NCBI RefSeq assembly: GCF_016026235.1
Contig: NZ_CP065613.1
Source: Escherichia coli
GTDB lineage: Bacteria > Pseudomonadota > Gammaproteobacteria > Enterobacterales > Enterobacteriaceae
DNA length: 64,000 bases
Strand: one strand, 5' to 3'
Shown here: positions 56,524 through 64,000 of the stretch, piece after piece
Position numbering within the stretch: the first letter of the stretch is position 1
How the letters are laid out: the number at the start of each line of letters is the position of its first letter
Notes under the pieces: generated by a model
The model's database searches: none
Seen by the model: the letters and a program-made list of their open reading frames with translations, nothing else
What the model was told of the DNA's origin: nothing
Translations under genes and position numbers: made by a program

Positions 56524-57815
56524 TGAGGAATCCCCAGAAAACAAGACAGGCATAGTGAGATGTGATCTAATTGATTGTGCTAACAATTTCAAGGAGATCA
56601 CCACTATGCCTGCACGTTCATTATGCCAAAATTTCCTTAACAACATACTGGCCCCTTTGCATCTTTACCGTCAAAAATCACTGATTGACGCAACTAATGC
56701 TGTAATAAATGGCGCTTCCCTCACACTTACCAGTATCGGGCGTCATTTAACCGGTACGGCATCAGTTAAAAACAAAATAAAGCGGGTGGATCGACTGTTG
56801 GGGAATCGACATTTGCAAAATGAGGTTTCCACCATTTTTCAGCGAATTACCCAAAAGATTACGCGGGGAATGTCTCGTGTTGTGATACTCATTGACTGGA
56901 GTGCTTATCATGCCTCTCGTTTTCAGCTTTTGCGGGCAAGCCTGGCATGTGACGGGCGTTCTTTACCGTTGATGAGTTGTGTCGTTCCATCATCACAGAC
57001 AGCGAATGCAGATGTACATGAGCGTTTTCTGGAATCGCTTGCTGAGTGCTTTTCCCCCGGGACTGATGTCATTGTTATTACAGATGCCGGTTTTCAGGGG
57101 CGATGGTTCCAACAGCTCCGCTCCCGTGGCTGGACCTATATTTGCCGGGTACTGGGCAATCATTATTACAATGTTGGTAATGGCTGGGAAAAGGTGTCGG
57201 ACTCAGGCACAAAAGCATCAACGACAGCAATTTATTTAGGTGAAGGCCTGCTGGGTCGAGATAAAAATGCACAACATGAAGGGCATTTTTATCTTTATAA
57301 AAGTAAGCCTAAAGGTCGTAGATTTAAACGCTCGAAGGAAAGAGCAACCAGACCATCGGTGACGGCTAAAGCTCGTACTGCCGGGAAATCACCATGGTTT
57401 ATTTTCACAAACAGTACTGAGTTCTCGCCAAAACAGGTAATGAAATTATACAGCCGTAGAATGCAAATTGAGCAAAATTTCAGGGATGAAAAAAATCCTC
57501 GCTGGGGATTTGGACTACGGTTTGGTGCCAGTCATTCATCCGGGCGGGTCACGGTATTGAGTCTGATCGCAACATTAGCCAGTATCATTATGTGGTTAAG
57601 CGGTTTCAGCCTGGAAAACAAAGGGATACATCATAAATATCAGGCAAATACAGTGAAGCACAGGCGAGTCATCTCGTTATTAAAACTGGCGGAGAATGTG
57701 ATTCGACATTCTCCACTCATACTAAACACACTGTCACTTGACGCAGGGCTGAAAGTTCTACAGCAACGGTATACCAATATGATAATGGTTTACTAAATTT
57801 TCTGGGGATCCCTCA
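56524..57815 (+). mobile_element. IS4-family (IS10-like) insertion sequence, copy 1, inside a CRISPR repeat
   Basis: ~1.29 kb; imperfect terminal inverted repeats CTGAGG(A/G)ATCCCCAGAAAA; flanked by a direct duplication of 10-12 bp of repeat sequence (GCGAGTTCCCC); one transposase ORF. Confidence 0.85.
56606..57796 (+). CDS. IS4-family DDE transposase (IS10-like)
   Basis: 396 aa from ATG 56606 (AAGGAG SD); shares recalled IS10 transposase motifs (KRVDRLLGNRHL, LIDWS, ITDAGF, YSRRMQIEQNFRD, YQANTV); the track ORF start at 56507 is read-through from spacer 4. Confidence 0.8.
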   Translation: MPARSLCQNFLNNILAPLHLYRQKSLIDATNAVINGASLTLTSIGRHLTGTASVKNKIKRVDRLLGNRHLQNEVSTIFQRITQKITRGMSRVVILIDWSAYHASRFQLLRASLACDGRSLPLMSCVVPSSQTANADVHERFLESLAECFSPGTDVIVITDAGFQGRWFQQLRSRGWTYICRVLGNHYYNVGNGWEKVSDSGTKASTTAIYLGEGLLGRDKNAQHEGHFYLYKSKPKGRRFKRSKERATRPSVTAKARTAGKSPWFIFTNSTEFSPKQVMKLYSRRMQIEQNFRDEKNPRWGFGLRFGASHSSGRVTVLSLIATLASIIMWLSGFSLENKGIHHKYQANTVKHRRVISLLKLAENVIRHSPLILNTLSLDAGLKVLQQRYTNMIMVY

Positions 57816-58316
57816 GGCGAGTTCCCCGCGCCAGCGGGGATAAACCACCATATAACCCGTTATCTCTTTCTCAAGTTTTTATATTAGCAGTACTTGTAAT
57901 AAGCAACATATCCACGTAACACCTCATGTTCAAAATAGTTCTCCATGCCAGAGAAGTTCACAATTATCGATACAAAAAATTAAGTTTAATCAAAGTATTA
58001 TTTGTATGATTCTTAAATCATTAAGAAATTTTAATATATTATTTTTTTAATATTAATTAATGCCTGTTAATTTTTGCTTAAGTATAACAGTGTATTTTTT
58101 AAGCTTGTTATTCATTGATTAAGTAATAAATCTGGAAGTTTGTCTTTGTTTTGAGGCTAATGAGTGGTTTTACATAACCGCCTCTATACGCTGTTGATGA
58201 ATAGTTCTTATGAATAAAGATATTCAGTTCATACTTTAAGTGAAAATTGATAAAGTGCGATTCGTATTGTCTTTTATTCTAAAGACATCGAGTGTAGTTA
58301 ATATTCCTTGTAAAAA

Positions 58317-58376
58317 CAGGGATAAACCGAACTAGTTAAAGTTTTTATTATGTTCCCCGCGTCAGCGGGGATAACC
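58317..58376 (+). repeat. Degenerate CRISPR repeat remnant
   Basis: cagggataaaccg, then ~22 bp, then GTTCCCCGCGTCAGCGGGGATAACC (diverged from the canonical repeat), preceded by ~450 bp of AT-rich sequence. Confidence 0.55.
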
Positions 58377-58423
58377 ATTCAGGTATGTTCAGGCCGGGCT
58401 GTTTCCCGCCCGGCCTTCCTCAC

Positions 58424-62302: not shown

Positions 62303-63088
62303 ATGTCAATCGAATCTCTCAATGCGTTCTCAATGGATTTTTTCTCCCTGAAAGGTAAAACCGCAATTGTTACCGGCGGGAATAGCGGTTTAGGCCAGGC
62401 ATTTGCCATGGCGTTGGCCAAAGCAGGCGCAAATGTCTTTATTCCAAGTTTTGTCAAAGATAACGGCGAAACAAAGGAAATGATTGAAAATCAGGGTGTT
62501 GAGGTGGACTTCATGCAGGTGGATATCACCGCAGAAGGCGCGCCGCAGAAGATTATCGCTGCCTGCTGTGAGCGTTTCGGTACAGTTGATATTCTGGTTA
62601 ACAATGCCGGTATTTGTAAGCTGAATAAGGTGCTGGACTTCGGTCGTGCCGACTGGGATCCAATGATTGATGTGAACCTGACCGCCGCATTCGAGTTAAG
62701 CTACGAAGCGGCAAAAATTATGATCCCGCAGAAAAGCGGTAAAATCATTAATATCTGTTCATTGTTCTCTTACTTAGGTGGACAATGGTCACCTGCATAT
62801 TCTGCCACTAAACATGCTCTTGCCGGATTCACCAAAGCTTATTGTGATGAACTAGGTCAATATAATATTCAGGTAAATGGTATTGCCCCTGGCTATTATG
62901 CAACAGATATTACGCTGGCGACACGCAGTAATCCAGAAACCAATCAGCGCGTTCTTGATCATATTCCAGCAAACCGTTGGGGCGATACTCAGGATTTAAT
63001 GGGCGCTGCCGTATTCCTCGCAAGTCAGGCATCGAATTATGTCAACGGGCATTTATTAGTGGTCGATGGCGGTTATTTAGTGCGCTAA
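62303..63088 (+). CDS. ygcW: Short-chain dehydrogenase/reductase YgcW
   Basis: 261 aa from ATG 62303 (GGAG SD); TGGNSGLGQA Rossmann motif and YSATK catalytic motif. Confidence 0.85.
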   Translation: MSIESLNAFSMDFFSLKGKTAIVTGGNSGLGQAFAMALAKAGANVFIPSFVKDNGETKEMIENQGVEVDFMQVDITAEGAPQKIIAACCERFGTVDILVNNAGICKLNKVLDFGRADWDPMIDVNLTAAFELSYEAAKIMIPQKSGKIINICSLFSYLGGQWSPAYSATKHALAGFTKAYCDELGQYNIQVNGIAPGYYATDITLATRSNPETNQRVLDHIPANRWGDTQDLMGAAVFLASQASNYVNGHLLVVDGGYLVR

Positions 63089-63157
63089 TCCATAACGGTG
63101 GTTTCTGTTTTCTCTTATTAATGATTATTCCATTTTTATTATCAGGAAGGAATTACT

Positions 63158-63587
63158 ATGTCTTTATCTCGCGCAGCGATTGTCGACCAGCTAAAGGAAA
63201 TTGTTGGTGCAGATCGCGTAATTACCGATGAAACAGTATTAAAGAAGAACAGTATTGACCGTTTTCGTAAATTTCCGGATATTCATGGTATTTATACTTT
63301 GCCGATTCCGGCAGCGGTCGTAAAACTCGGTTCCACAGAGCAAGTATCCCGTGTGCTGAATTTTATGAATGCGCACAAAATTAACGGTGTGCCGCGTACC
63401 GGTGCTTCCGCCACCGAAGGTGGGCTGGAAACTGTTGTAGAAAACTCGGTGGTGCTCGACGGTTCCGCCATGAATCAAATCATTAATATTGATATTGAGA
63501 ATATGCAGGCGACGGCGCAATGTGGCGTTCCGCTGGAGGTGCTGGAAAACGCGTTGCGTGAAAAAGGTTACACCACGGGGCATTCTC
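63158..63587 (+). pseudogene. ygcU: FAD-linked oxidoreductase YgcU, 5' portion truncated by IS insertion
   Basis: First ~143 codons of an FAD-binding PCMH-type oxidase, then the coding sequence runs directly into the IS terminal inverted repeat at 63588. Confidence 0.7.
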
Positions 63588-64000
63588 CTGAGGGATCCCC
63601 AGAAAATTTAGTAAACCATTATCATATTGGTATACCGTTGCTGTAGAACTTTCAGCCCTGCGTCAAGTGACAGTGTGTTTAGTATGAGTGGAGAATGTCG
63701 AATCACATTCTCCGCCAGTTTTAATAACGAGATGACTCGCCTGTGCTTCACTGTATTTGCCTGATATTTATGATGTATCCCTTTGTTTTCCAGGCTGAAA
63801 CCGCTTAACCACATAATGATACTGGCTAATGTTGCGATCAGACTCAATACCGTGACCCGCCCGGATGAATGACTGGCACCAAACCGTAGTCCAAATCCCC
63901 AGCGAGGATTTTTTTCATCCCTGAAATTTTGCTCAATTTGCATTCTACGGCTGTATAATTTCATTACCTGTTTTGGCGAGAACTCAGTACTGTTTGTGAA
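63588..64000 (-). mobile_element. IS4-family (IS10-like) insertion sequence, copy 2, inverted, cut by window end
   Basis: 63588-64000 is the exact reverse complement of the 3' ~410 bp of copy 1 (terminal repeat CTGAGGGATCCCCAGAAAATTTAGTAAACC; transposase C-terminus ...LQQRYTNMIMVY on the minus strand). Confidence 0.9.

Follow-up and report, generated by a model that had tools for sequence, protein, structure and literature searches.

Are two inverted copies of one insertion sequence, 5.8 kb apart and with their transposase genes pointing inward, a composite transposon, or did they arrive separately? The question is raised by the end of a 64,000-nt stretch of Escherichia coli DNA (contig NZ_CP065613.1 of assembly GCF_016026235.1), which we refer to at its full length as the window. 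A first-pass annotation had described the arrangement as Tn10-like, had judged the insertions to be probably independent, and had pointed out that such a pair is a potential substrate for inversion and composite mobilisation. Comparison with related assemblies suggests, with a probability of roughly 0.9, that the two copies of the element, ISEc60, reached their positions 5.8 kb apart separately and stepwise, in a lineage of E. coli rich in insertion sequences. As part of this account, the pair would have formed in place, would never have moved as a unit or been inverted, and would in principle be capable of either.

The ISEc60 copy in the CRISPR array

The first element (copy 1) occupies 56,523–57,816 on the plus strand and is complete at 1294 bp; its ends read CTGAGGAATCCCCAGAAAA and TTTTCTGGGGATCCCTCAG. 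It has its own 10-bp target duplication, GCGAGTTCCC, at 56,513–56,522 on the left (also in contig L017) and at 57,817–57,826 on the right. The duplication had been recognized earlier, with the start of the element placed one nucleotide off. Over all 1294 bp, copy 1 is 100% identical to several E. coli records annotated as ‘IS4-like element ISEc60 family transposase’, which are chromosomes and large plasmids. Its transposase gene (56,606–57,796, plus strand) is intact and encodes 396 aa with a DDE domain, matching NCBIfam NF033591 (360.1 bits, cut-off 152) and Pfam PF01609. The exact protein is encoded on 202 contigs and carries the ISEc60 name in E. coli; transposases of Shigella dysenteriae that are nearly identical and also annotated ISEc60 share a 90% cluster with it. 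By sequence, then, copy 1 is a complete ISEc60, an IS4-family relative of IS10 with a cut-and-paste DDE transposase, and its open reading frame is intact. Terminal inverted repeats of 19 nt, with one mismatch, are found at both ends of copy 1 and of its partner. The 19-nt repeat CTGAGGRATCCCCAGAAAA occurs at exactly three sites in the window (56,523, plus strand; 57,816, minus strand; 63,588, plus strand), where shuffled sequences lead us to expect none.

Copy 1 splits the CRISPR array between queE and ygcE in its terminal repeat. The leader-proximal part of this type I-E array, beside queE (56,263–56,522, plus strand), contains four full 29-nt repeats with their spacers and then 8 nt (GAGTTCCC) from the start of the terminal repeat, the fifth. 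The right target duplication and the rest of that repeat, ending in ATAAACCA, follow at 57,817–57,847 (plus strand). The repeats belong to family D1, with 61-nt spacing, and E. coli genomes carry a CRISPR annotation at this locus. Because the cas operon seems to have been lost from its usual position, little consequence is expected from the insertion.

Native genes between the copies

Everything that the first-pass annotation had placed in the ~ 5.8-kb bracketed segment was located in the 5771 bp between the copies (57,817–63,587). Beyond the end of the CRISPR array there is a degenerate solitary repeat remnant (58,350–58,378, plus strand; family D1, 62% identity), followed by ygcE, an intact gene for a 492-aa FGGY-family kinase (58,424–59,902, minus strand). 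The MFS transporter gene yqcE (59,929–61,983, minus strand) is split into fragments of 176 and 253 aa by an IS1 of 768 bp (60,481–61,248, minus strand) with InsA and InsB open reading frames and a 9-bp target duplication, GTTGGTGGA; in contigs L003 and L006, yqcE is uninterrupted and encodes 425 aa. Next are ygcW, intact and encoding a 261-aa SDR oxidoreductase (62,303–63,088, plus strand), and the 5′ part of ygcU (63,158–63,587, plus strand; codons 1–143 of 484). The ygcU fragment ends in the target 10-mer GGGCATTCTC, which is also as far as it aligns with the uninterrupted ygcU of L003.

The gene order, queE-CRISPR-ygcE-yqcE-ygcW-ygcU-(deletion)-ygcN-queD-cysJ, agrees with that of IS-free relatives and annotated E. 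coli genomes. On either side of copy 1, the parts of the split CRISPR repeat keep their direct order, which argues that the segment is not inverted. A second assembly (contig L001) has the identical arrangement.

A second copy without a target duplication

The right-end 413 nt of copy 2 lie within the window (63,588–64,000, minus strand). As had been read from the window, they are an inverted, sequence-identical counterpart of the 3′ end of copy 1 (413 of 413 nt, 57,404–57,816 against 63,588–64,000), and both transposase genes point inward. The inverted-repeat arms returned by a repeat finder (57,404–57,828 and 63,576–64,000, 425 nt, 99%) are truly repeated only over the 413 nt of IS, the other 12 nt being target-like flank.

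The window matches E. coli assembly GCA_900449985.1 (contig L005, 100% identity over 15,577 nt), from which we took the sequence past 64,000; positions there are termed virtual. The first-pass annotation would have abandoned its reading had copy 2 proved truncated or devoid of its outer terminal repeat, or had the identity broken down outside the window. In GCA_900449985.1, copy 2 is full length (virtual 63,588–64,881; L005 5022–6315) with its outer terminal repeat kept, and it is full length also in L001. Identity to copy 1 persists over 1293 of 1294 nt. The sole difference is a nonsense codon in copy 2 (AGA to TGA, codon 239 of 396, virtual 64,084), which gives its transposase gene (minus strand, ending at 63,608) a premature stop in this genome. 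The Tn10-like description thus stands, with inverted full-length copies and both outer ends intact, and the 1.3-kb inverted repeats with one intact transposase gene would make the pair a latent substrate for inversion or composite mobilisation.

The extension that recovered the rest of copy 2 did not recover the target duplication anticipated for it: none was found in the flanks taken from GCA_900449985.1. The outer flank is GGATATTTCC, in ygcN, and the inner flank is GAGAATGCCC, in ygcU, and in the uninterrupted contig L003 these lie 5,183 bp apart. Missing beside copy 2 are the 5,183 bp from the 3′ end of ygcN to the 3′ part of ygcU. The deletion placed ygcN at the outer flank of copy 2, which accounts for the lack of a target duplication.

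Stepwise assembly of the pair

How could such a pair form? In the sequence of events that we favor, most steps of which are documented by related assemblies, ISEc60 first inserted into ygcU at GGGCATTCTC, generating a 10-bp duplication. In GCA_002461615.1, contig L007 has the ygcU 5′ part joined to IRR, and L023 has IRL joined to GGGCATTCTC and the ygcU 3′ part, continuing to an intact ygcN. Together, these contigs point to a simple insertion in ygcU, flanked by a 10-bp duplication, as the ancestral state of copy 2. A second ISEc60 probably inserted into ygcN at GGATATTTCC, presumably in the same orientation as the ygcU copy. A 5,192-bp contig of GCA_018228405.1 (L025) starts inside the ygcU 10-mer and stops inside the ygcN 10-mer, suggesting repeats at both sites, the intermediate expected for recombination. 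The contig contains no IS sequence, so the orientation of the ygcN copy before the deletion is not directly visible. Homologous recombination between the direct ygcU and ygcN copies would then have deleted the 5,183 bp. The observed product is consistent with this mechanism: copy 2 is a single hybrid element, bordered by ygcN at one end and by ygcU at the other. At least four assemblies share an identical ygcN–IRL junction.

Later, yqcE would have received IS1, and the terminal CRISPR repeat a further ISEc60, copy 1, which made its own 10-bp duplication. Assembly GCA_902503985.1 has both the ygcN–IRL (L041) and ygcU–IRR (L006) junctions, and copy 1 and IS1 are absent from it, which indicates that the deletion precedes both. 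That this assembly also lacks the deleted segment we infer only from its absence among the nine contigs carrying the ygcR protein of that segment. Copy 2 would have then gained its nonsense mutation in this genome. Relatives with the ygcU copy but neither the CRISPR copy nor IS1 bear out the early view of independent insertion and show it directly. The disrupted features are ygcU, ygcN to ygcS, yqcE and the last CRISPR repeat, and no function is implied beyond disruption.

Alternative explanations

Should the 8.36-kb unit be a genuine composite transposon, inserted as a unit or captured and moved, the Tn10-like layout, the intact outer ends and the one intact transposase gene would all be as expected. 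However, the outer flanks share no target duplication (GCGAGTTCCC versus GGAAATATCC), copy 1 has a duplication of its own, the bracketed genes are native neighbors in native order, and relatives hold one copy without the other. Nor is the bracketed segment carried by true plasmids, among which only its IS1 part finds matches. We consider this explanation extremely unlikely. Neither IS junction occurs in any of 5,426 complete E. coli genomes, and the ygcU–IRR junction had 0 exact-pattern matches among contigs sampled at one genome per species. An assembly artefact, with the IS collapsed or misplaced at the window edge, would be in keeping with the frequency of misassembly at IS repeats, but we give it almost no credence: several independent assemblies and SRA-derived contigs (L001, L005–L010 and L039–L041) share these junctions, and in two assemblies a megabase contig runs through both copies.

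Homologous recombination between the copies could be inverting the segment, or could have done so once, given 1.3-kb inverted repeats that are 99.9% identical and 5.8 kb apart. This is very unlikely, as the split CRISPR repeat halves still flank copy 1 and the orientation is native in both long-contig assemblies with both copies (L005 and L001), although these are consensus assemblies, blind to isomers within a culture. Short contigs are uninformative on this point, since all four IS-flank junctions stay unchanged by inversion. No traces of inversion or mobilisation were found in the contigs and collections examined. The deletion itself may have been made by transposase, with a single ygcU copy attacking a ygcN target as an adjacent deletion, rather than by recombination. 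Roberts, Ascherman and Kleckner are said to have found in 1991 that IS10 promotes adjacent deletions at low frequency. An adjacent deletion from the ygcU copy would yield identical final junctions, and the ygcN breakpoint ranks high as an ISEc60 target (top 0.05–0.1% of 10-mers). A genuine ygcN insertion would pick a good target too, however, and L025 breaks exactly at both 10-mers yet keeps the 5.2 kb between them, making this route unlikely. We rejected replicative inversion followed by deletion as a source of copy 2, since the ygcU junction would then read GGAGAATGCC followed by CTGAGGG, where GGGCATTCTC followed by CTGAGGG is observed. Separate insertions, with recombination between direct copies, thus remain our preferred reading.

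An apparent target preference of ISEc60

Ten distinct unrearranged ISEc60 sites (copy 1 and nine at other loci) have 10-bp repeats, with one of 11 bp, and the consensus G-G-G-A-W-W-W-Y-C-C. All targets in matched duplications have the form G-N8-C, a sequence predicted equally by a 10-bp model and by an 8-bp model in which the terminal C and G come from the IS. A tandem dimer, IS-10 bp-IS, was observed, and ISEc60 copies in opposite orientation occur in L002 and L004. Homologous recombination is ruled out as the cause of the latter because recombination within an IS never alters the pairing of flank and IS end. We tentatively suggest, at somewhat less than even odds, that ISEc60 may be a strongly site-selective relative of IS10, with a near-palindromic target of ~ GGGAWWWYCC in which the same nucleotide would be hit repeatedly and in either orientation. 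The start of a type I-E CRISPR repeat (spacer end plus GAGTTCCC) forms one such target, so CRISPR arrays would be recurrent hot spots, along with a few chromosomal sites. If this is true, a duplicated target would stay attractive after insertion, and Tn10-like pairs and local deletions would be predictable from target preference rather than a matter of chance.

Implications and comparison with known systems

The arrangement is an ordinary outcome of IS expansion, with latent potential only. It matters little beyond annotation, except as a clean reconstruction of IS expansion eroding a dispensable cluster (ygcN to ygcU, yqcE) and an orphan CRISPR array. A Tn10-like layout alone is not evidence of a transposon, and assemblies or rearrangement calls at this locus call for reads that exceed 1.3 kb. 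Only the apparent target preference, with one site reused in both orientations, is mildly new. A literature search returned mentions of ISEc60 in resistance surveys and nothing relevant under the assembly accessions.

How close is ISEc60 to IS10? The transposases of copy 1 and IS10 share 36% identity over 375 aa (E = 1e-74); ISEc60 residues D97/D160/E289 align with D97/D161/E292 of IS10. The ISEc60 terminus is CTGAGGAATCCCC, compared with CTGATGAATCCCC and CTGAGAGATCCCC in IS10. The direct repeats are 10 bp, G-N8-C (11 bp in one case), for ISEc60 and 9 bp for IS10, including an IS10 in L029. The ISEc60 target consensus is GGGAWWWYCC-like, whereas that of IS10 is NGCTNAGCN, and ISEc60 does not display the IS10 combination of a 9-bp duplication and a symmetric NGCTNAGCN hot spot. 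An Rfam scan of 56,000–64,000 for an RNA-OUT-like antisense RNA found none, with just two chance-level matches.

The pair resembles Tn10, in which IS10-Left is defective, in having inverted copies, inward genes, transposase-proximal outer ends, and one intact and one defective copy. Unlike Tn10, it lacks a shared duplication and brackets native chromosomal genes instead of cargo. Of the general hallmarks of composite transposons, two IS copies flank a segment with outer ends intact and one transposase open reading frame intact; a single duplication around the whole unit, and bracketed DNA that is foreign or found in other contexts, are lacking.

Insertion sequences, IS10 among them, are documented in CRISPR loci and cas genes (PMC10359306). 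Copy 1 similarly splits a CRISPR repeat, although here it is the terminal repeat that is struck, at a locus from whose usual place the cas operon is apparently gone. The parallel with Shigella and enteroinvasive E. coli, where IS elements cause deletions and gene decay, lies in the many copies of one IS: the chromosome of the relative FDAARGOS_943 has 38 places matching ISEc60, and the element also occurs in E. coli LT-68 and S. dysenteriae. The closed genomes CP065615.1 and CP119450.1 have numerous copies too. Hybrid ISEc60 copies without duplications mark deletions or rearrangements at copy 2 and in L016 and L033, and we see no difference in kind between this locus and those genomes.

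Structure of the inverted ISEc60 pair

A complete ISEc60 (copy 1) occupies 56523-57816 (+, 1294 bp) within the terminal repeat of the queE-ygcE CRISPR array, carries its transposase gene at 56606-57796 (+) and is flanked by direct repeats of GCGAGTTCCC (56513-22 and 57817-26). Over its full length it is 100% identical to elements annotated by NCBI as 'IS4-like element ISEc60 family transposase'. Its transposase scores 360 bits against the IS4-family model NF033591 (cut-off 152) and has a Pfam DDE_Tnp_1 match. Near-full copies of ISEc60 occur in a minority of complete E. coli genomes (14 of 5,426), and FDAARGOS_943 has 38 matching places on one chromosome.

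A second copy (copy 2) begins at 63588 on the minus strand, so both transposase genes point inward. In 50000-64000 a repeat finder returned a single long inverted repeat, whose arms span 57404-57828 and 63576-64000 (425 nt, 99%). The IS part of these arms is identical at 413 of 413 positions (57404-57816 vs 63588-64000), and the other 12 nt of each arm are target-resembling flank, not IS. The 19-nt terminal repeat CTGAGGRATCCCCAGAAAA has three sites in the whole window (56523 +, 57816 -, 63588 +) and none in 100 shuffles. Between the copies lie 5771 bp (57817-63587) that contain the remainder of the split terminal CRISPR repeat with a degenerate repeat remnant, ygcE, yqcE split by IS1 (60481-61248, 768 bp, 9-bp duplication GTTGGTGGA), ygcW, and codons 1-143 of ygcU. 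The first-pass annotation had described the pair accurately in every particular except the start coordinate, which was offset by 1 nt.

Contigs were retrieved from public assemblies by exact look-up of the ygcE protein. L005 (E. coli GCA_900449985.1, contig UGFA01000002.1) matches the window at 100% identity across 15,577 nt, to position 64000, and therefore served as the source of sequence past that point (window position = 69903 - L005 position). There, copy 2 is full length with both terminal repeats (L005 5022-6315, virtual window 63588-64881), and its identity to copy 1 holds outside the window apart from a single nucleotide, at IS position 798. Codon 239 of 396, which precedes the catalytic glutamate, is thereby changed from AGA to TGA, so the copy 2 transposase is truncated in the window genome; in GCA_031665325.1 (L001) the arrangement is the same and copy 2 is intact. 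The two results that would have spoken against the first reading, a truncated copy 2 or a loss of identity past the window edge, did not appear.

A deletion beside copy 2

Copy 2 has no target duplication, as one flank is ygcU and the other ygcN. In L005 orientation, the inner junction reads …CTCAG|GAGAATGCCCCGTGG (ygcU) and the outer junction …GGATATTTCC|CTGAGG (ygcN). In an uninterrupted relative (L003) these flank points lie 5,183 bp apart; missing beside copy 2 are the 3′ end of ygcN, ygcO, ygcP, ygcQ, ygcR, ygcS and the 3′ two-thirds of ygcU.

Related assemblies show the order of events. In GCA_002461615.1, one contig (L007) ends at a junction of the ygcU 5′ part with the right IS end (IRR), and another (L023) starts with the left end (IRL), followed by GGGCATTCTC and the ygcU 3′ part, and continues via intact ygcS to ygcN. 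This assembly represents the ancestral state: ISEc60 inserted simply, oriented as in the window and flanked by a 10-bp duplication. A second ISEc60 would then have entered ygcN, and homologous recombination between the two direct copies would have removed the intervening genes; the orientation of the ygcN copy, like the recombination, is presumed, not seen. The expected intermediate is represented by L025 (GCA_018228405.1, 5,192 bp), which begins within the ygcU 10-mer, finishes within the ygcN 10-mer and retains the 5.2 kb between, the expected assembler output with one repeat at both sites. The deletion could instead be a transposase-mediated adjacent deletion, and L025 favours recombination over that explanation. 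At least four assemblies share the ygcN-IRL junction to the nucleotide. GCA_902503985.1 has both this junction (L041) and the ygcU-IRR junction (L006), together with an uninterrupted CRISPR array and intact yqcE, so the deletion is older than both copy 1 and the insertion of IS1. IS1 is absent from yqcE in relatives that already have the ygcU insertion, which likewise makes it late.

Target preference

Both window sites have been used more than once. In the related genome L002 (5799-7093), ISEc60 lies at the exact ygcU nucleotide (63588) in the opposite orientation, with the 10-bp duplication GAGAATGCCC and no deletion; in another relative, FDAARGOS_943 (L004, 12087-18935), it lies at the same nucleotide of the CRISPR terminal repeat (56523), again in the opposite orientation, with its own 10-bp duplication GGGAACTCGC. 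Recombination within an IS cannot alter which flank joins which end, so these copies are separate transposition events at the same sites. Nine further sites at other loci have 10-bp repeats (one 11 bp), all G-N8-C, and the consensus is about GGGAWWWYCC, near-palindromic (flanks L011-L020 and L030-L037; window 56513-56522 and 63578-63587). A weight matrix derived from 12 unrelated flanks was scored on all 10-mers of 68.6 kb of reconstructed empty sequence; the CRISPR, ygcU and ygcN targets rank in the top 0.05-0.25%. The preference is thus real. It probably accounts for the repeated use of these sites, and it may also be why three insertions cluster within 13 kb. The matrix, a crude one, leaves recurrence at two of the three sites partly unaccounted for. 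Subterminal ISEc60 sequence (GGGATTCCTC / GGGATCCCTC) is itself target-like.

Related structures and surrounding loci

Inverted ISEc60 pairs are not rare in this lineage: GCA_031665325.1 has another, with ~6.8 kb between the copies and a separate duplication around each (L014, L015; contig 3148-3160 kb). By rough estimate, dozens of copies per genome would place one or two pairs within 6 kb by chance. Elsewhere, two tandem copies with just 10 bp between them (GGGATTTACC) and GGGATTTTCC as the outer flanks (L012:1418-4015, the same place as L013) look like a second insertion into the resident copy's duplicated target, which implies that the target remains attractive after insertion. Copies with non-matching flanks (L016, L033) mark further IS-mediated rearrangements. 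The CRISPR-repeat ISEc60 of FDAARGOS_943 is split by a 5.5-kb insert (L004:12366-17914) in which an IS66-family element lies between two inverted IS110-family copies, a nested, composite-looking structure.

At 56507-57796 an open frame runs from the flank across the 83-nt IS leader and on into the transposase, giving a 429-aa ORF that starts in a CRISPR spacer. The same open leader occurs in a called 567-aa ygcU′-transposase fusion (L002:5820-7523), so read-through fusion proteins are possible.

In the window genome, about 10 kb past the window end (L038:1-4657), cysH is followed by hok, a 234-aa ISEc60-type transposase fragment, IS4 and a class II aminoacyl-tRNA synthetase gene, at the position where K-12 has its type I-E cas operon. 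The cas locus appears to have been lost or rearranged, which probably makes the window's CRISPR array an orphan. At 51519-54388, in TPM/LemA-cluster genes downstream of eno, 48-nt and 26-nt G+C-rich direct repeats (three copies each, 85-92% identical, ~0.9-1.2 kb spacing) are probably repetitive coding segments common to paralogous genes.

Is the pair a composite transposon?

So, did the two copies ever move together? In principle the pair might move as one unit or undergo inversion, but flanks, gene order, relatives and plasmid records gave no evidence of either. The outer flanks differ (GCGAGTTCCC left, GGAAATATCC right), so the pair never entered this site as one unit. The halves of the split CRISPR repeat stand in direct order around copy 1, so the bracketed segment is not inverted, and the gene order, queE-CRISPR-ygcE-yqcE-ygcW-ygcU-(deletion)-ygcN-queD-cysJ, agrees with IS-free relatives and with annotated E. 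coli genomes. A search of 72,556 plasmid records matched true plasmids through the IS1 part of the segment alone; the three long matches came from 4.8-4.9 Mb chromosomes entered as plasmids. The earlier interpretation, a Tn10-like arrangement of probably independent insertions, was sound: the pair lacks a shared duplication and copy 1 has its own. The element was already known, as were the types of consequence (insertion, recombinational deletion, pseudogenisation), and the pair is an ordinary outcome of IS expansion in IS-rich E. coli.

Comparison with IS10 and Tn10

The ISEc60 protein shares 36% identity with the IS10 transposase across 375 residues, and its D97, D160 and E289 line up with the catalytic triad of that enzyme. 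The termini CTGAGGAATCCCC closely resemble IS10 ends taken from an E. coli IS10 copy; an RNA-family search returned no match to an RNA-OUT-like family. In Tn10, as in the 8,359-bp ISEc60 pair, the outer ends are transposase-proximal and one intact copy is accompanied by a defective one. The likeness to Tn10 is one of geometry and nothing more.
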